A stretch of DNA of 59,545 nucleotides, counting the filler, from Dugesia japonica (taxonomy: Eukaryota): the NCBI GenBank assembly GCA_001938525.1. It is 5 parts of 5 records of this genome, joined end to end, with 100 filler letters (N's around TTAATTAATTAA, not from the genome) between each part and the next. Parts side by side here need not be neighbours in the genome. Positions count along the whole stretch, not along the records: positions 1 to 9,334 come from MQRL01615999.1; 4 more parts are not named here. One strand, written 5' to 3'. The first letter of the stretch is position 1, and every line of letters begins with the position of its first letter. Below the pieces are notes generated by a model. The model searched no databases. It saw only the letters and a list, made by a program, of their open reading frames with translations, and had not been told where the DNA came from. Shown here one piece after another: positions 1 to 53,640 of the stretch. Both the position numbers and the translations under genes were made by a program.

Positions 1-689
1 TACGCTACTAAACCCATTCAAATTTAATCGTCTACTCCCGAATAAATACATTGCAACGTATTTTATTACTTTCAACAATCATGTTTGGACACGGAAAATT
101 TGATAAATGTAAACTAAATCTACAGTTGTAATTTAAAGAACTCAATATTTATTTANAATAGTGTTACAAAAACATACATTTTACGAAAATATTTGTAAAT
201 TTATTTCTGTAATTAAAAGCAGCAAAGGAATTTTGTTGAGGTTTTTCATCAATATTAATTTTGAGATTGAATAGTAAAAGTTATTATAAACAAATCCAAC
301 ATGTGCATCGAATGTCTGTGGTAATTTATTTTCTAATCTGATAATCCTATTAAAGTCTAATACAAGTTTTATATATCGATTTTTAAAAATTATTATTATA
401 ATCAATATTTGTAATCAATATTATAATCTTAAAAATTATAATAATAGATTAAAAAAATTTTTATTGAAAGTAAATTACAAATATTTTTATTAACCAAACT
501 AATATGTTTATAGAGAAAATTCTACAATGATTACTATCTTCTAGCTATTAGTATTTCTTTTAAGGATATCAAATTACACGAGTATGTGTTTATTACAAAA
601 GCACTTGAACACATACTAATACTACATCACAATGTAAGAATAAAGTGTGGTTTTAGTGATCAAAATTTATCGTTTTTATTCCAAAGTAA

Positions 690-1160
690 AAAATTTACCT
701 GTGAGCACATTACTATCGCATCTTTAAATGAATTCAATAGAAACTGTGGATTATTAACAGTCTGATCCCCTAGATTTTTAAATTTAACCAAGTATTGAAA
801 ATTTACATTACATGTTCCATGATCACCACTTTGATGAAATAGATTTTGTGTAACATCATAATGTCTTGATATTTTTGTGAATAAATTATTTAAATCCTTA
901 TGCTTATTTGCTTCCTGTTAAAGATCATCAAAAACAATCACATCACCAGATTTCAATCGTTTGCTCCAATTTTCACCAATTCAATTAATAATAACCAGTT
1001 TTATATCACAAAATACCAATGGTGTTAATCAATGTTCCTCGTCTGTAAATCTTTATGCCAACATTTTTTATTAAATTTTGATTAGAATAAATTCAATTTA
1101 AAAAATTTACACACAAATAAAATTTTTCCACTACCAACAATTTGATATACATCATCATTT
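690..1160 (-). pseudogene. Polinton/Maverick A32-like packaging ATPase remnant
   Basis: Minus-strand translation gives Walker A-like GSGK (1124-1135), Walker B GDVIVFDDL (~921-947), then LFTKISRHY..QNLFHQ..NVNFQYLVKFKN. This matches the Polinton ATPase signature LFTKGSHH..QNLF..SLNAHYLVLFKNPRD. Stops and indels are present. Confidence 0.85.
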
Positions 1161-1236
1161 CTTAATTCCATTATAATTAATGCTTGTTTAAACGTATAAT
1201 TAAAATTAATATTGTTTTACAGATATAAATACCAAT

Positions 1237-1635
1237 TTGAAAACTAANAAATCAAAAATAATGATTTCAAATATTAAATATAGAGGGAAATTTGATCAAG
1301 AAATGAACAAAAAAATGAGATTTCCAATTGGTAAACTTACATATGTTATAGAGAAGACCCATAAGTATACTTTTATTATCTTCAAAACACAAATCTATAG
1401 AATCATGAGATGCTATAAAACCAGAGGATTTAAATTATAATATCAATAATCACTTACAGTTGTCCACAATTAGAAGATTTAGATTTATTCATATGAATTA
1501 TCCAAAGTAATCTATCAGGTTTGACGATTTTAGGTGCCGATATTCTTGATCAGCGTAAAATTCTCCATTGTATAACTTATGTTTCGATGTATATTCCAAA
1601 CTAAAAAGCTTGGAATAGTTAATCCATTTATGTAA
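1237..1635 (+). pseudogene. Degenerate TBP (TATA-binding-protein)-fold-like ORF next to the Polinton ATPase
   Basis: One frame read through stops gives ISNIKYRG..YTFIIFKTQIYRIMRC.. then *SLTVVHN*KI*IYSYELSK..RF*VPIF..LMFRCIFQTKKLGIV. This resembles the two TBP repeats (QNIVSTVNL..TALIFSSGKMVCTG and QNMVGSCDV..YEPELF..LLIFVSGKVVLTG). Alignment by eye only. Confidence 0.4.
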
Positions 1636-2289
1636 TACTAAGAGGGGGGTGATTCAGTGTGCTACTATCTAATGTTTGTTGGTTATTTTGGATTTCATCA
1701 GACCCAAAATAATGATTCTATAGATACGGTAAATAATTATATTTTAGCAATAAAAATCATTTATTTTCATATTTGTATATTGAAGAAAAGAAAAGATTTC
1801 TTTTTTTGTTTATTGTATTTAAATTGGACTAATTTCAGAATGAAATCAAATTCAATTTTATCAATTGAATTTTCTCTGGAAAACTTTGTATAATTCTATT
1901 AATTGATTTCATTAAAAATTCCTTAACAATTTATTTTTTTCGTAATCCAATTCACAATTATGTGATAAAGACGAAAGTCTCTAAAATTTATTGGCACATA
2001 AAATAACTATCATTGATAGAGAATTGGTAATAAATTCGGTTGAATGAATCTAAAAAATAGTTGAATGAAAGACAAGGTATAATTTATTCATTACCGCATA
2101 TAATTAAAGAGCGAAATTTTTTGAAGAGCTGACATAGGAAAAATTGAATAATAATAATGGTAATTACAATAATAATAATAATAATTAATAAACAATTAAA
2201 GGAAATAATTAAATGACTTCATTTTTAAATATTTTTTTTAAAATAAAAATCGGATTTATTTTAGACTTAAAGCTATTAAATGAACAATA

Positions 2290-3600
2290 AACTTTATTAG
2301 GGGTTGGGCCAACAAACCCTACATTAAGAAGATCTTGATTTTCTGAAAGCATTTATAACTAAATCAAAACTAGACTTCCTACAATAATATAAAATTATAC
2401 AAATTATATTCTATAAAAATTAATAGAAAATAATTTAAAATAAAAATTGACAAAATACAATTAATTAAAAACTTATTAAAAATCATTACAAAGACTTTAC
2501 TTTTTTTAAATATCTTACACATTCTTTTTCTCTAACTATATTATTTAAACACAGAATTTATTACAGGGCAAAATAAAAATCAATTATCTACATTTATATT
2601 GCAGTAGGTAGATTTGAGCGCAGAAATTGGGCAACTGATCTGAAAATCTGTGCTATAGGTTATCGTGGATTTATTGATTTAAGATTTTTGATCCGAGCAA
2701 ATTTGAAAAATTTTTTTTGGTGTTTTTTGTGGGAAACTTAAATTTTGTTTTGATTTTTTTGAATTTTTTTTCAAATTTTGACGGAGAATATTTTTTTGAG
2801 GGTATTGGAGATATTGGGGGTGTATATTTGGATGAATGTTGTTTGGGAAAGTTGTGTGTGTGTAAGTGTGTGTTAAAAAACGAAAAAATGTTCAAAAGGT
2901 GTGTGTAGGTGTATGTGTGTGTTTGATGATGATTTGTCTTGGCTCTCGAAAAATTTTTTATGTTGCCACAGTTAACTAAAGAAGAATGGAACGATGAGAT
3001 TTTGTTGGATTTGGATAGAAGTTGGATTGTTGGGAAGAGAGGGAGTGGGGATAGGTGATGTGGTTTTGTGGGTATTGATGTTTTGGATTATTGATTGATT
3101 TTTTAGAGGGTTAGGGGTTAAGGGTTAGTATGTAGTGTGGAAGGGGTCAAAATATGTTTTATGTGGGGTTTATTATTTTTTTAGTGTAGAGGTGAAAAGG
3201 GGGAGTTGGATAATGTATGGGTTGAATTTTCGAGTGTGTGGGTATGTGTATATAAATTTTTGAAAATCATAGTTTTTTTAAAGGTGGAAGAGATTTTTTA
3301 AGAATATTGTTTGTGCGGTCTATATGCTTTTTGTTTAAGCAGTCTAGAGATTTTTGTTCCGGCAGTCTTGAGTTTGAAAGTTATGACACTCTAAGTTCTC
3401 AGGGGGTATGTGTTGTCGTGGTACAGTTTTCGTGTTGCAAAAGAGAGTTATAAGTATATTTTAGTGGTTTGAGCTGTCTAAATTGCTCAGGGTAGTCTAA
3501 ATATATATGCCTAGGGCAGTCAAAGGTATTTAAGTTATAGAAATTTCGGAGAGGAGAGTCTATGGAATAAGACATTAATTGATTAATTCTTTATAAGTTA
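2290..3600 (-). mobile_element. Degenerate retroelement-like fragment (possibly Penelope/LINE), strongly G/T-skewed on the + strand
   Basis: Strong strand skew, low-complexity P/T/H/K-rich minus-strand frames, and a stem-loop plus AATAAA at ~2290-2325 on the minus strand. No diagnostic catalytic motif found. Confidence 0.3.
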
Positions 3601-3654
3601 ATTAGTTTAAATAAATAGATTATTGATAATTATAAATGATTTTTTGCATTGTTT

Positions 3655-3992
3655 CAGTAACAGTCTTGTTTTCCTTCCATACCGTTACATTGCTTCCTCC
3701 GAAAATGTACAGTGGAGCAGTTATTCCGATCGTTCACATCCGGTCTCAAGTTGTAAACCGCTATATCCGTTAGCATCCATCCGAAATAGTTCATAATTGA
3801 ACTTATCAAACAGCTTGCATAGTTTTAACTACATAAAATTCGATTCAACATGTGCATTTTCGGTAGCAGTTATTCTAGACGTTCACAAATCAAACACCAG
3901 TACAATTTTTTAAAAACAATAAGTCATCATAGTCAATAATTGACTATACACGGATCCGCAAAATGACAAGGAACTGTTATGATAACATAACT
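3655..3992. mobile_element. Small MITE-like element
   Basis: Imperfect terminal inverted repeats (taacagtcttgtt / gacaaggaactgtta) and an internal direct repeat gcagttattc..cgttcaca at ~3717 and ~3866. No clear TSD. Confidence 0.3.
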
Positions 3993-5129
3993 GTTACTTA
4001 TTCAATGCATGTCATTTTTTATATTATTTAGCATATATTAGACTTTTTGTCACATTTTAATAAACTTTGACCATATTAATGGAACCTTTAAACCACATTG
4101 ACCATATATATTAATGAATCCTTTAAATAACTTTGACCATATAGTAATGGAAACTTTTAATAGATTTACCTAAATTTCAATTCATTTATATATTAAGTTT
4201 AAATTAAATTAACTTTAAAATATATTATTAAAAAATTTAACATATTAAAAAATAAATGAACTCACCATTTTTAATTTCAAACACAGTTATAGTAATATGA
4301 AATTAAAAAATCAATATATTTATTGAATTATTACAAATTCTTAGAAATTACAAATTACAAATTTTAATTTCATATTATGATAATTATGGAAATTATGGTC
4401 ATTAATATAATAGAATATAATAGATAATAATATAATTTAATAGAATATAATAGAATATAAGATAAATTTTAAAAAGAATTGTGTATTATTTACATAGTAA
4501 CAGTGTAATAATTACATAGTTACAGTGTATTGTTTTTATTATTTACATTGTAACAAGGTACTAATTGTATTATTTATATAGTTACCTGGTATTATTTACA
4601 TAGTTACCGTATATTGTTTCTAAAAGGGTAGTCTTTGTATTAAGAGGTGAGTCAATATATAATTACATGCTAAAATAATCAAAGTTGAACTTTTCTTTAA
4701 AAATAATAAAACTGTAGAATTTTTCTTTAAAAATATATCTATTTAAAAAAATATTCAAAGATTGGAGTCTTTGTATTGATTTATTATATGCATTAGTTTA
4801 TCATTCATGGAATTTGACAGGTTTATTAGATTATATAAACCCATAAAACTTTATATGACCTAAAATTACTCTATAAATACCTTATATGATTAAATAAATT
4901 TCCATAGAAACCATATGAAACCAATAAAATATCTTATAATCCTTATAAAAACTTATGAATAAACAGACATCCATAGAAACTGTATGATATCTAATAAACC
5001 ATGTATTAAAGTCTTTAAAAAAAACTCAAAATAGTTTTTAACAAGTAAATTTCTATTTAATGAAAACAACTTTTATTATTAAAATTTTTATAAGTCCAAA
5101 TTTTTTATAAGTAAAAAAAAATCTTAAAC

Positions 5130-5330
5130 GTATAGGTTCATTTAGTAAGATAACAGCTCAGGATGTACTAGCTAATGATGGAAAAATATTACCAACATTA
5201 AAATATAATGCATTAGCTGAGCTTAGAAATGTTGTGTCATCGTTACCTAGTGAAGTAACCAATATGATCTCAAAAGTAGCAGCATATTACCGCAAAGTAT
5301 TACAAATAAAATGCCATCTAAAATAACTAA
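5130..5330 (+). pseudogene. Possible Polinton small core-like protein remnant upstream of the capsid gene
   Basis: Translates as ITAQDVLANDGKILPTLKYNALAELRNVVSS, resembling the A.DVL.G...K motif of the small ORF that usually precedes the Polinton MCP. Position fits. Confidence 0.4.
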
Positions 5331-5483
5331 TATGCTATGAAATCAGTCCAAAACATAAACAACTAATAAAAGAGAAGNNNNNNNNNNNNNNNNNNNNNNN
5401 NNNNNNNNNNNNNNNNNNNNNNNNNNNNNNNNNNNNNNNNNNNNNNNNNNNNNNNNNNNNNNNNNNNNNNNNNNNNNNNNNNN

Positions 5484-6486
5484 NTCTACAAATCGTAATT
5501 GAAAGTGGTACTTTCGAAGATGTCTTTCCTATGAATTCAATTTCTGAATTACAAAGTGATGTAACATTTTTATAAAAATGGTCGCAATAATAATATTTAG
5601 ATTTGAATGATACTTTATCATATATTAAAGTAAAGGTAGTTGATAAGACAAAAAAAGATTTGACTGACACTCATGATGCGATTCCTTGTAACTATATGTT
5701 GCTTACACATTTTAAGGGTTTATTTCTTTCATTTAATAATTTCAAATTTGAAGGTTGAAATTAATACTATCTTCACAAAGCATTAACAGGAACTTTAATA
5801 AATTATAATTGTGATAATGAGAATATCTGTCTTGTGGCAATGGGATATGGGATCGAAGCAGATAAAAAATGTCTAATAAAACATCAAAACAGTTGTCTCT
5901 ATGTGGTTCATTGCAACTTGATTTCATGGATCAACCGAAATACCTTATTCCATGTGTCAATGTTCATATTCGATTGAAAAGAGAATCTTCTAAGATTTGT
6001 TTGAAATCTGAAGCGTGTACGTGTTGAACCCTCAGTACTAGGTGCTCATCAACTGGGACTAGAAAAGCCAAATGCTATTTATCCAATAAGAACCAAGGAA
6101 GTCGTTGCATTAGTAAAGATAGTTCATTGTTTTTTTAAGAGTAAAATCTCTAGTGATCGTTGATTACATCATTTTATTCTAGTTGCAATTCAAAATGGAG
6201 ATCAATATAATAGTAGTTATAAAAGCTCGAGTTTAACATTTCAAAATTTAAATGCTGTTTCTGTTTCCTTGACGAAAAACACTGATTATCGAGAAAGGAC
6301 AATTATCCCTTCTTTATATTTGTTCTTGCTTCAGATTTTGATATAAATCAGTGTCAATTACCACAAGAAAATTTGAGATTAGATATCAAGTTTGCCAAAA
6401 CTTTAACATTATCGGCATATGTTATAATTTATGAAGTATTTGAAAAGGAAATTCAGAATAAAGATAACGGAACAGTATTAGTATAA
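5484..6486 (+). pseudogene. Polinton/Maverick major capsid protein (double jelly-roll) remnant
   Basis: Collinear MCP-like blocks: QIVIESGTFEDVFP..YLDLNDTLSYIKVKV; SKQLSLCGSLQLDFMDQPKYLIPCVNVHIRLKR; KRVRVEPSVLGAHQLGLEKPNAIYPIRTKEV; ENLRLDIKFAKTL..VIIYEVFEKEIQ. Multiple stops and frameshifts; the 5' end falls in a gap. Confidence 0.9.
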
Positions 6487-6734
6487 ACAATGCTATTGCA
6501 ATGAAGTAATTTTTACGTAAATCTTCAATCGGTAATTCATTTTCCAAATCACAAATTATATTTTTAGATATAATATATTTCACTACTACAACACATACTT
6601 AGTAAGATAATTATAATTGAAACAAAACTGATTACATTTTAAAAGGGAATTTGATCACTTTCTAATGACTAAAATTATTAAATAATAATTATTCCATTAT
6701 AGTAATAATTACTATATTATTTACAATTTAATTT

Positions 6735-7068
6735 ATTAGTTCTATTCAGATTGATCAGATTGCAACAAAGTGGTTTGGATTAGCGTGGCTAGGTGTTTAT
6801 GCATTAGATAAACTTCCAAATTATATTCCAGTAATAAATCCCTTAATAGTCAAATACATCAAATATTGGTGGAGAACATTGGATAGCTGTTTACAATAAA
6901 CCTGCTCAAATAATGCTATTTGATCTATTAGCATTTTATTATCCATCAATGTTGGTGTCACATTTATCGAAACCAATTATGTACAATAAAAATCGATATC
7001 AAGATCCATTTACAATAACCTGTGGACAACACTGTTTATTATGGTTAAACAAACAAAATAACAGATGA
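6735..7068 (+). pseudogene. Polinton adenain-like (adenovirus-type) cysteine protease
   Basis: GVYALDKLP..GGEHWIAVY..LFD..RYQDPFTITCGQHCLLWL* retains the H, D, Q and C catalytic pattern. One frameshift near 6850. Confidence 0.9.
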
Positions 7069-9434
7069 AATATTTAGTTGCGTGTATTTGTAGTATACAA
7101 AATATATGTTAAATTGACAAAAAAATCTTGTTCATTTTTTTAATAAAACTCAGCAAAAACACAATACAAATTAATAACAATATTTCAAATAATCTGATGA
7201 TATAAAAATTAATGTCTGGTAATTATTGTATAGAAATTACTGTCTAGAAATTTAATATATAAATCAATATAATTTAAATTTAATTGATATTGATTAATTA
7301 CTATTATATTAATTATTATATTATATTAATTACTATGTAATTTTAAATGTCCAAAACCTAGGCTTTTTGATAAATTTTTAAATAATTATACAAAGAAAAT
7401 GATGACTATAAAAATTTATTCTTGTAGAACTTTTAAAACCACAAGATTTGAACACTTATGATAATAAAATCCCAGACTCACATATACTCATGAACCCATA
7501 CGCTCATACAACCATTAATGTGATTAATTCTAATAAAATAAGCATAATTTGTTTTAACGAATCAATTACATTAATTCTATCAAAACCCTAATGTTCCTCA
7601 TTAATGATAACTAATATTAGATTCACAGCTTAAGTGTTGCAAGAAAACGAGCTTTCGAATATGTAAACAATGCCCATTCAAGGTTAAAAGTGACAAGTAT
7701 ACGATTACTATACAATTTTGAATGTCCAAAATCTAGGATGTTTGTTTATTATTNNNNNNNNNNNNNNNNNNNNNNNNNNNNNNNNNNNNNNNNNNNNNNN
7801 NNNNNNNNNNNNNNNNNNNNNNNNNNNNNNNNNNNNNNNNNNNNNNACTTTTATTATATTAAATGAAGTGAGATATTTAATTTATTATCCGCTTTTCTAA
7901 GATAGATAAAAATTTGGAGATCTATGGTTAAGTTCAATAATATTTTACGAATAATTCTAATGATACGATTTAATAATATCAAAGTATTTTGAAACCATTC
8001 TATAAAATATATAAATTATAATTTCTTTATAAAATTTATTTAATGAATTCCTTCATTTTTTTACATTGTAATTTTTGAGTTTTAATTTGTGGCTACTCAA
8101 TTTTTTTTATTAATAATGTGTCTAGGGAAACAAGTTAATTACTTTATCACTCGTGGGAAATTAAAAGAGATACAAAAAGCATTTAATTTAAAACGTAAAA
8201 AATATAACTTTCATTTTTTCTAATTAATTTTTTCGTGATGATATTAATAATTTATACAATTAAAAATTATAATTAATATTTAAAATAATGGAATAAAGAA
8301 TATTAGTTTGAATAAATGACATTATATCAATTGGAAAAATAAAAAAAAATTAATAGAAAACCGTTTACGTTATAACAAAATATAAAGATATGTGATTAAT
8401 TAGTCTCTTGAGACAAAATTTAAGTCAATTCCTTCATAAAAAAATTGTAAATAAAACTTCGAAAATGTCTTGTTTTTATGTACGTTGATATTAGATGCAA
8501 AAAATAGATTAGTAAACAACATAGCCAACAATAAATAATTCGTTGCCTGGAAACAATAAAAGTGCAAATCTAGGCATGACTGTGGCATACAATAGAATTA
8601 AATAAATTTTCGTAGACAATATATGAATGAAACTCACGCATTAATTTAGATTTAACTTTGTGATGATTTTTTATGACTCATTTTGTTATGCAAATATAAA
8701 TGATTATTAAAATTTTTTTGAGTAGGCTGTCTTCAAATAATCAATAAAATTTTTTTCTATAACAATGACAAATTTTTAATGAATTATTTTTTAAAGCTTT
8801 CTCGTTTATCGATTGAAATAATCGAATTTATTGTTAATCGATAATTCGATTTTGCAAAATATCGACCATATAAACANNNNNNNNNNNNNNNNNNNNNNNN
8901 NNNNNNNNNNNNNNNNNNNNNNNNNNNNNNNNNNNNNNNNNNNNNNNNNNNNNNNNNNNNNNNNNNNNNNNNNNNNNNNNNNNNNNNNNNNNNNNNNNNN
9001 NNNNNNNNNNNNNNNNNNNNNNNNNNNNNNNNNNNNNNNNNNNNNNNNNNNNNNNNNNNNNNNNNNNNNNNNNNNNNNNNNNNNNNNNNNNNNNNNNNNN
9101 NNNNNNNNNNNNNNNNNNNNNNNNNNNNNNNNNNACATCAAATTCTTTTACACGGTAGTTGCATATGTTGGATATTTAAACTCAACAAAAGATTTATGGT
9201 TCATATTTGATACTATTTTATCTTTGTGTGTATGTAGGTACTGTATTATATAAACGATATCTTTATTAAAAAATTTATAAATATAGTAATATAGTGTAAC
9301 TGTGACCTTATATAAATAAATAATAACAACCTTTNNNNNNNNNNNNNNNNNNNNNNNNNNNNNNNNNNNNNNNNNNNNTTAATTAATTAANNNNNNNNNN
9401 NNNNNNNNNNNNNNNNNNNNNNNNNNNNNNNNNN

Positions 9435-34359: not shown

Positions 34360-34421
34360 AAATATATTATTAATATTATTTATATTAATATTTCAAAATA
34401 AAATACTCCAATAAAACTCAC

Positions 34422-34684
34422 AATCCATCCACCTTCTTTGCAATATCTATACAAAAAGACTGCTGGAACAAATATTAATGGGAAAAGAGCAATTATATGA
34501 GATAAAGTAATAAAAGGTTTTGGATATGAATATGAGCCATATTTAAGCGTGTCTCCCGTTATAAAATAAAATATTATCAAAAATGTAATCACAGCAGGTG
34601 ATATATACATCCACATTATTCTCCAATACCAATTTGGCCTTTTGGTGGTCATTAGAGCAATGTCTTTCCTGAATCTATTGATAC
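34422..34684 (-). CDS. SLC6 transporter penultimate exon (TM11-TM12)
   Basis: Acceptor cttcag and donor gtgagt. Encodes (G)INRFRKDIALMTTKRPNWYWRIMWMYISP..LKYGSYSYP..LIFVPAVFLYRYCKEGGWI, the classic SLC6 C-terminal TM region. Upstream exons were not found; a scaffold join lies at ~35700. Confidence 0.92.
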
Positions 34685-36869
34685 CTGAAGATGATAATAA
34701 TAATAATGATAATAATAATAATAATGTTGGGGTTTCATCTAGATGCGCTGATTTTTTAATAAATAAGTCTAGAGTGGTCGGTCTAGTAAAACCCCGCGAA
34801 AAATTTAATCTGGTGTCCCCAAAATTCCAGATTTTCGGAATGGAGCCGTTGACTCGGAATTCGAGTGCAGACTCGCATCCCTTTGATTCGGGTTCATATT
34901 TCAAGACACTCGCTAAGATTCCTCCGGCATNTATTCACATTATCTATTTTCTTATTAGCCCTTTATCGATTTCAACTTTGGGAAGTCGTTTAATAGTCTT
35001 TACTATATAAACTAGTTTAGTCTGAATTAATTATAAATTTTTTGGTTTGGTATTAAATTAACTATCCTAAAAACAGAGAAAAACAAAATTGTAATAGAGA
35101 AAATTATATTAAAATACTAACTTTACTGGTGGTACATTAACTGACAATTAAAACAATCGATAGAACTAATGTGGTCTGGATCCCGATCCGGAGCAAGCAC
35201 AATGTCATGATATTCATTTTCTCCATGGTTAATGGTGACCCGAGAGATCCTCCATAATGTTGAAATCAAGCTGGAAATCGTTACACCGGTAATCAAATAG
35301 TAAAAATAATCACCTTCTTTGATAACTGAAAAATTTTCCGTCTAACTTCAGGATTTTCTTGATAAAAAGATTGATCTTTTGGTGAAAATTACATCGGTAT
35401 TTATACCGGTTTTCAGATACACTCTCGTTATTTTTATTGGTCATTTGGAATCGTACGATTTTTCTAACGTTTCCATTGGCTTGAACGTCATATGAGTTCT
35501 TTTTATTGGTGGTTATTTTAGGATTCTAAAATTATTGGTCAATCTTCAAACCCTTATAACTTCTTTCTGGATCTTATTACGATTTTCTAACTGGCATTTT
35601 TGAATTCCTCAATTGTTTCTAGTCCATAATTTTCTTATCTGCTAATTTTAACTCCAACGGAAACCTTCATTTTTCTTATTTTTGACAAATAATTTANNNN
35701 NNNNNNNNNNNNNNNNNNNNNNNNNNNNNNNNNNNNNNNNTTAATTAATTAANNNNNNNNNNNNNNNNNNNNNNNNNNNNNNNNNNNNNNNNNNNNAATC
35801 ATTAAATTAAGTAAAAATTATTAAGTTAAAATTTAATAATATTATGTAAAGTTTAAATCATTACAATAAAAATTGTAATGATAGTTAACTTAACAATTTA
35901 AATAAAATGAAATGAAATTATAATCAAATTAAAATAAAATCANTAACATATAGTTATTAAAGAAAGTCATTAACCTAAAATTTAATCTTAATAAATCTAA
36001 CCTCTATTCATAAATTCCTTTGTCATTTTGTCAAAAAATTCCTTAGACACATTATTTATTTTTTTTCAGTCTAAAATATAAATCAATAACAATAGATTAA
36101 TTAATTAAACTTACCATGTTAAGGCTTTTCGTCATGTTTGTTGAAATATTTTTTTTTGAATTCATTTTGTTTATATCTAGAATAAAAAAATCATTAAAAT
36201 AAAATAACGAATAAATAGTCACTTACTTTGTAATTGAATTATGGAATAATGAGGAATTATGGATTTTTCAAAGTCATCTACCATTTTATTTATTTAGCTT
36301 AGTTAAACAAAAATAAATAAATAATTTCTATATAATAATAATTAATTTAATATACCTAAACCAAAATTAATTTATTGTTAATTTAAAATTTATTAATTAA
36401 AAACTTATTAATTAAAATCTTATGAACTTTAAAAACATTTTCACACCAATAAAATCTTATAAAACTCTATAAGAATATATAAAACTATTTAGATAACCTA
36501 TAGAATCCAATAATATTCTAAAGAAACCTTATTAAAACTTTGATTTATCGTGCATTTTCATTGTTTTCATTGCATTATTGTTGCACAAATATGACTCACG
36601 TTCTTTGTTTAATTGAATTCAATTGGCATTTTCCTTATTATAGTTGCAATTTCGTGTTGCTTTTCTTTAATATAGCTGTTATAGTTACATTTTTGTTAAA
36701 ATGTTTAATTTTTTTTGTTTTAATAAATGATTGATTTTTGTAGGAATTGTAAAATTTGTTTTACTTTTATGCTTTTTTTTAAATTTTGTTTAAAATTTTT
36801 TTTAATATATTTTTTTTATTGAATTTTTTTTTGGAAATTTTTTTTTCTGAATTTTTTTATTTGTTTTTG

Positions 36870-53261: not shown

Positions 53262-53640
53262 CTGAACAATTCACTCAGTGTGATACAACCATCATGTTGT
53301 TTCCGATAAAAATACTGAGTTGCTGTATTTTGATATTAATAACTTATATGAGTTGACCTTAAGTAAAACGTGGCCCAACTAAGATTTTGAGTAGGTTCAT
53401 TCGGATTTGGATAAAATATTAGAAGATTATTAGAGAATGACCTTGGATTCACTGTATGTGTGTATTAGAAGTGGATATTGTAATACCAAACGAACTTCAT
53501 TATTATTTAAACGATCTTCCGATAACAACTGAACATGAGAACTCTCGATGTAGTAAAGTGGATAATTTACTTTCAACATACCCATTTGAAAATATTTTAG
53601 TCCAATGGAGGCTGATGTAAATGAATATAAAGACTTGAAT
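53262..53640 (+). pseudogene. Polinton protein-primed DNA polymerase B fragment
   Basis: LLYFDINNLYELTLSKTWP..DFE matches motif A (YLDANNLYGWAMS..LP), and VLEVDIVIPNELHYYLNDLPITTE matches ILEVDLEYPKELHD.HNDYPLAPE. Confidence 0.88.

Follow-up and report, generated by a model that had tools for sequence, protein, structure and literature searches.

Among the closest described systems are viral proteins that mimic TATA-binding protein (TBP). Those of beta- and gammaherpesviruses, KSHV ORF24, EBV BcRF1 and HCMV UL87, use a TATT late promoter, and in the accessible part of the source they are large and bind Pol II directly within a six-protein complex (PMC6541308). The known viral TBPs treated in the available text of PMC7221094 have diverged both at the two glutamates assigned to TFIIB binding and at the N-lobe basic patch (helix H2), which contacts TFIIA, TAF1, Brf and Mot1, and they are often accompanied by a TFIIB of their own. 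For Polinton-like elements the prior printed trace of a TBP-like gene is a figure label, as far as the openly accessible literature was searched. This label is the legend entry 'TBP' on the MELD-virus maps, on at least one adintovirus-like element, of Starrett et al. 2021 (PMC8502044; preprint 10.1101/697771), and the gene so labelled may or may not be of the family described here; the accessible text gives no residues, range or promoter. The term is absent from the accessible part of that paper's supplement, whose readable map lists none, and a term look-up of 'TBP' and 'TATA' in the available portions of 10.64898/2026.06.19.733378 and 10.1101/2023.10.06.561300 returned none.

The window, the whole stretch of Dugesia japonica DNA analysed here, is 59,545 nucleotides long, filler included. 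Judged by its sequence, it contains a defunct piece of a Polinton gene that encodes a shortened TBP, and this identity of the gene is practically certain. The coordinates are collected in Table 1. The plus frame runs for 125 codons from 1261 with seven internal stops, and comparison with another copy reveals the two short internal deletions. Positions 1255-1515 match the family profile with E 1.8e-11, and the remnant is 52% identical to a natural open copy (E 2e-18); in Pfam, the remnant and six neighboring frames gave no match (0/7). A preliminary description of this DNA had placed a divergent Polinton packaging ATPase remnant about 80 bp away, and this is borne out, with the ATPase on the minus strand and the two ATGs 89 nt apart. 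The ATPase remnant matches natural ATPases with E 2e-34 and 1.5e-28 (tblastn), and the ATPases of related copies show weak Pox_A32 matches in Pfam. Other genomic copies align with the window DNA over 690-1512, across both the ATPase remnant and the TBP-like fragment. In most copies of the window's subfamily the intergenic gap is about 90 nt, and in the window it may have served as a two-way promoter.

Table 1. Features of the Polinton gene fragment and its surroundings in the window.
Feature	Position	Strand	Remarks
Polinton packaging ATPase remnant	690..1171	-	ATG at 1171, frameshifted, 3' end cut off
Divergent intergenic region, 89 nt	1172..1260		Between ATPase ATG 1171 and TBP-like ATG 1261
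YATAAAC box position ahead of ATPase	1211..1220	-	Decayed here, exact motif absent
Canonical TATA box TATAAATA ahead of TBP-like gene	1224..1231	+	Intact in window sequence
TBP-like gene, 5' part: first lobe and beginning of second	1261..1512	+	Stops, two deletions, 3' end missing
Dispersed repeat, unrelated, in place of the gene's 3' part	1513..1670		Not TBP

The same description read a plus frame from 1237 to 1635 with two blocks resembling TBP repeats. The frame exists, but the gene starts at 1261 rather than 1237 and its homology ends near 1512. A DNA search of the same genome gave at least 40 non-self matches (40 of 662 candidates scored), and all those listed end near 1512; as a different repeat follows, the window carries only the 5' part of the gene. 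Both quoted blocks are found in the sequence. The second, RF*VPIF..CIFQTKKL at 1513-1635, is rejected as a TBP repeat, since its score against the profile of the family is -1.5 bits and its DNA matches the other repeat, so that its resemblance to TBP is due to chance. With this block outside the gene, the description was right partly by luck. The repeat itself has 39 other short DNA matches of 78-92% identity, and with no shared ORF across the nine loci examined it is apparently non-coding.

Relatives of the fragment are numerous. The same genome has at least 150 copies: in a protein search, 150 of 7122 candidates yielded at least 151 matches with 53-88% identity to the query, and by hand count 47 of the 150 listed have no stop inside the match. 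All five natural open pieces exceed the curated Pfam cut-off for PF00352 (E 2.5e-12 to 6.7e-6), which is also matched in L088, L127, L136 and L208, and the best solved relatives of the family are TBPs (E 2e-11). The model of P0002, a relative 87% identical to the query copy, was built from a 105-row alignment with pLDDT 97.3 and superimposes on TBP with Z 13.7 and rmsd 2.6 over 147 aligned residues, so the predicted fold is a TBP saddle of two lobes that lacks the greater part of helix H2. Pfam and structure prediction with fold search had been proposed as checks at the outset; together with the Polinton linkage below, both speak for a short, intronless, divergent TBP-fold protein of this lineage. 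Its members are mostly 145-175 aa (about 150 aa). At E 1e-12 the family gathers 233 proteins out of 1841 candidates, and 58 of the 64 loci found in metagenomes belong to it. It belongs to the TBP fold superfamily, and is neither a canonical TBP nor a herpesvirus vTBP. A search of IMG/VR with a TBP alignment gave five loci, all outside the family by tree or profile, and scans of IMG/VR with capsid or ATPase queries gave no Polinton; a phage collection held no family match and Protein Atlas generic TBP clusters only. One family member, P0131, has an apparent third half-repeat.

Compared with cellular TBPs (eukaryotic TBP and TRF and archaeal TBP; PF00352), the family shares the predicted two-lobed saddle, the YEPELFP loop, in which both glutamates for TFIIB binding are kept, three of the four phenylalanines that wedge into DNA, and the equivalents of N69 and P191, but it is about 30 residues shorter, with a shortened H2 segment and the loss of F99. 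Counting over 105 family rows, with yeast numbering mapped by hand, the glutamates that we take to be E186 and E188 are conserved in 93/105 (with Asp in six more) and 103/105 rows. F116 and F190 are each kept in 104/105 rows and F207 in all 105; Lys, Pro or Arg stands in place of F99. On the surface that in TBP is known to face DNA, V122 is replaced by Arg in 103/105 rows, T124 by Met in 104/105 and L205 by Asn in 105/105. These three appear to be new, near-invariant DNA-face residues. More generally, polar or larger residues stand at V122, T124, L205 and I194, and Ser or Thr at the places of N159 and V161. No long helix H2 is present in the P0002 model. The segment bearing it has a median of 21 residues in the family against 32 in yeast; it has at most 25 residues in 77/105 rows and is near full length in a minority. 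The residue pattern suggests that the family retains the TFIIB-binding glutamates and drops the N-lobe regulatory surface. It shares with the TBP-like factors of the Nucleocytoviricota a viral TBP fold without the N-lobe regulatory signature, but keeps glutamates at the TFIIB-binding sites where those factors, in the available text, have diverged (PMC7221094).

Linkage to Polinton genes, which the preliminary description had asked about, is often seen. At least one core Polinton gene adjoins the TBP-like gene in 17 of 20 own-genome contigs, 31/53 short own-genome loci and 28/58 metagenome loci, many of the latter only 1-2 kb and too short for neighbors, against 0/19 loci of non-family TBPs. 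In the long loci L088, L127 and L136, genes for pPolB, integrase and ATPase and genes of capsid type occur in differing orders, with pPolB (PF03175) and a retroviral-type integrase (PF00665) in L127 and L136, as in Polinton/Maverick elements of the adintovirus type. Among the 20 own contigs, three have pPolB and seven an integrase. The Polinton packaging, protease and capsid set near the gene is recognized in Pfam by Pox_A32/IVa2, Peptidase_C5 and weak Capsid_N matches; otherwise the capsid genes are presumed to be such from gene size, order and general likeness. A pair of terminal inverted repeats was not found in L088, L127, L136 or window positions 1-9334; the contigs are fragments. Picking own-genome loci by the ATPase instead (40 fetched, 28 usable), the TBP-like gene is nearby in 16/28.

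Several further features were seen around these genes. Eight of the own-genome loci (L172, L175, L177, L180, L183, L193, L196 and L207) form a subfamily of their own, in which the ATPase lies behind tandem end-like repeats, no TBP-like gene adjoins and the YATAAAC box described below is mostly kept. Four unnamed families of 120-250 aa (L105:1479, L118:719, L136:8390 and L125:1828) occur near the TBP-like gene in differing layouts and by eye resemble single-strand DNA-binding proteins, and another family, marked by an exonuclease-like DFE motif, recurs there. In the window, 5123-7047 (plus strand) holds a second Polinton remnant with pieces of core-protein, major capsid (E 3e-51) and adenain genes and with YATAAAC at 5354 and 6482; it is probably a separate fragment, since its strand is opposite to that of the ATPase. 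A short pPolB-like remnant lies at 53290-53617 (E 2e-7).

In the tree, all 33 family rows fall on one side of a branch with support 98/85, and the own-genome copies are nested among the metagenome elements, apart from six host TBP rows. The family is about 23% identical to canonical TBP. For 12 of 13 pairs of family members dN/dS is 0.14-0.38, and the sequences thus compared place the family under purifying selection; the single pair within the window's decaying subfamily has 0.88, as expected from decay after insertion. A clade uniting the family with host TBP is not rejected by AU tests on 31 rows (p 0.14 and 0.27), for which the smaller tree excludes 30 of the 61 rows, including the long branches L167, L080 and L210. 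Besides a canonical TBP with introns, the host genome contains several diverged paralogues of it, some in long single exons (L156-L161, L167), as well as several TFIIB-like loci, the matches to which are exon pieces or Brf1-like. None of the three outcomes named beforehand as counting against the gene (no TBP-fold hit, copies unlinked to Polinton genes, nesting with host TBP) arose, with own copies grouping with metagenome elements; an ancient host donor is still compatible with the tree, given the AU tests.

A repeated word, YATAAAC, lies about 35 nt before the ATG of Polinton genes, fixed in strand and position. Spotted by eye in the same upstream windows in which it was later counted, it occurs in 45/69 de-duplicated windows with the TBP-like gene excluded, compared with 163/8466 background windows (2%) and at most 6 in 1000 shuffles. 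By gene, the box precedes ATPase in 14/16, PLA2 in 7/8, minor capsid in 6/8, major capsid in 5/7, exonuclease-like in 7/11, integrase in 4/10, core in 1/4 and protease in 1/5 de-duplicated windows. Before the TBP-like gene it is found in 0/43, and a normal TATA is present there in 20/43. It does not occur on the reverse strand of the upstream windows, in which ATAAAC is the top 6-mer. Of 189 YATAAAC sites, 70 (37%) precede an ORF start by 28-60 nt; among nine control words the share is 1-9%, and C is favored at position 7, the T, A and G variants preceding a gene in only 1-9%. The stop codon of an upstream ORF is overlapped by 27/188 sites; the distance peak at 30-40 nt persists after their removal. 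A clear initiator 30 nt behind the box was not found.

The own genome gives a similar picture, in counts that are not independent as the copies are related. The exact box precedes the ATPase in 30/38 regions, in a head-to-head layout without an upstream stop codon, PW in 28/40, major capsid in 8/8 and core protein in 3/16; replication-type genes mostly have none (pPolB 1/3, SSB-like 1/8). Upstream of the TBP-like gene the box is present in 0/59 and TATAWAWR in 41/59. CCAAT or ATTGG words stand upstream of this TATA box in L089, L090, L093, L094, L096, L100, L116 and L119, and the spacing from TATA to TCA measures 30-32 nt in 13 of the 21 loci compared, both consistent with a host-type early promoter. 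Among ATPase-picked own loci, the box is present in 10/16 with the TBP-like gene nearby and in 9/12 without it; the latter, perhaps rearranged or dependent copies, could be supplied with the protein in trans. One ATPase-picked Polinton contig with the family (L208) has the box before its genes, and three partial contigs without the family (L209-L211) do not. Four RNA runs gave 38-1495 reads against L058, mostly less than 90% alike, on both strands and with no clear start site.

We consider it rather probable that the TBP-like protein is the Polinton's own late-gene activator, acting through YATAAAC with host TFIIB and Pol II and escaped from H2-type control, 'late' being assigned from gene type. 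Host TBP and Pol II would express the protein early from its normal TATA promoter. It would then bind YATAAAC through its altered DNA face, and the kept glutamate pair would recruit host TFIIB, bringing Pol II to the virion genes, while loss of H2 would free the protein from control of the Mot1, TAF1 and TFIIA type. The initial guess at function, redirecting host transcription or binding the AT-rich element, is likely to narrow down to activation of the element's virion genes. The presumed logic is that of the herpesvirus mimics, a viral TBP-fold protein and an altered TATA about 30 nt before structural genes read by host Pol II; the box motif differs, and fold matches to those mimics are weak (E 1e-3 to 2e-2). 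In place of their six-protein complex (PMC6541308, accessible part) stands a lone domain of about 150 aa. No partner family common to all three Polinton gene layouts was found, and the three longest loci, L088, L127 and L136, which are possibly incomplete, showed neither a TFIIB nor an RNA polymerase gene. By analogy, the Polinton protein likely works like a herpesvirus vTBP with far fewer parts.

Alternatively, a factor of the host, be it TBP/TFIID, a host TBP paralogue or a Forkhead protein, could recognize the box as a weak variant of TATA, with the Polinton protein, for example, repressing early promoters. A host factor can bind such sites, as TBP was crystallized on a C(-25) TATA variant according to the title of entry 1qn3. 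The host has several TBP paralogues, and the box is retained in copies without an adjoining TBP-like gene. The preference for C at position 7 and the near-invariant new residues on the family's DNA face oppose this reading, which we judge unlikely. The Forkhead consensus site does resemble ATAAACA, but GTAAACA precedes genes in only 3/48 cases, the reverse orientation does so in 3/190, and a Forkhead site is rejected. The reading of YATAAAC as a signal for poly(A) addition or termination, or as a side effect of the stop codons of packed genes, has in its favor the overlap of sites with stop codons and the likeness to AATAAA; it is very improbable in view of the box in head-to-head layouts (30/38) and of AATAAA preceding starts in 18/592 only, and the surviving distance peak rejects a stop-codon artefact as the sole cause.

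Other readings concern the protein itself. As a decoy it would soak up host TFIIB or sit on host promoters and damp host transcription, which suits the retained glutamates and reduced regulatory helix but leaves the element's own box, and its absence from the promoter of the TBP-like gene, unexplained; we regard this as improbable. It is distinctly improbable that the protein bends DNA for replication, integration or packaging at the AT-rich ends. TBP-like folds do occur in replication initiators (Z 7.2), and the gene adjoins ATPase or SSB-like genes, but gene order varies among the three layouts and the glutamate pair has, in the available text, no known role outside TFIIB binding (PMC7221094). 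An ordinary host TBP retrocopy caught in the element would fit the intronless gene and the AU tests, yet the one-sided branch, the nesting of own copies among metagenome elements, the low identity to canonical TBP and the purifying selection reject a recent one, and the reading as a whole is extremely improbable.

For Polintons, which lack an RNA polymerase, the timing of virion genes bears on whether they have a true viral cycle in animals, and a candidate activator with a matching promoter opens the question to direct tests that need one small protein and a 7-nt box. An activator of this kind, if true, would be a case in which nature re-programmed the specificity of TBP but retained its TFIIB contact, and would parallel, by convergence, the TATT late transcription of herpesviruses. 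We give even chances to the wider claim that in a broad Polinton clade a single protein of 150 residues switches transcription from early to late, as the smallest viral TBP system, which would be orthogonal to the host in its DNA step at YATAAAC while using host TFIIB and Pol II, and that a second Polinton lineage has its own TBP-TFIIB pair for the same problem.

A different Polinton, on the ATPase-picked MAG contig L210, has at 4714-5831 an unrelated-looking TBP (PF00352, E 2e-18) in which the first glutamate is lost. Next comes a gene resembling TFIIB (PF00382, E 7e-7, with zinc ribbon), head-to-head with the capsid gene, and YATAAAC does not precede the genes of this element. Elsewhere in the window, 34380-34934 on the minus strand is an open frame of 184 codons, which we take to resemble a neurotransmitter-transporter exon.
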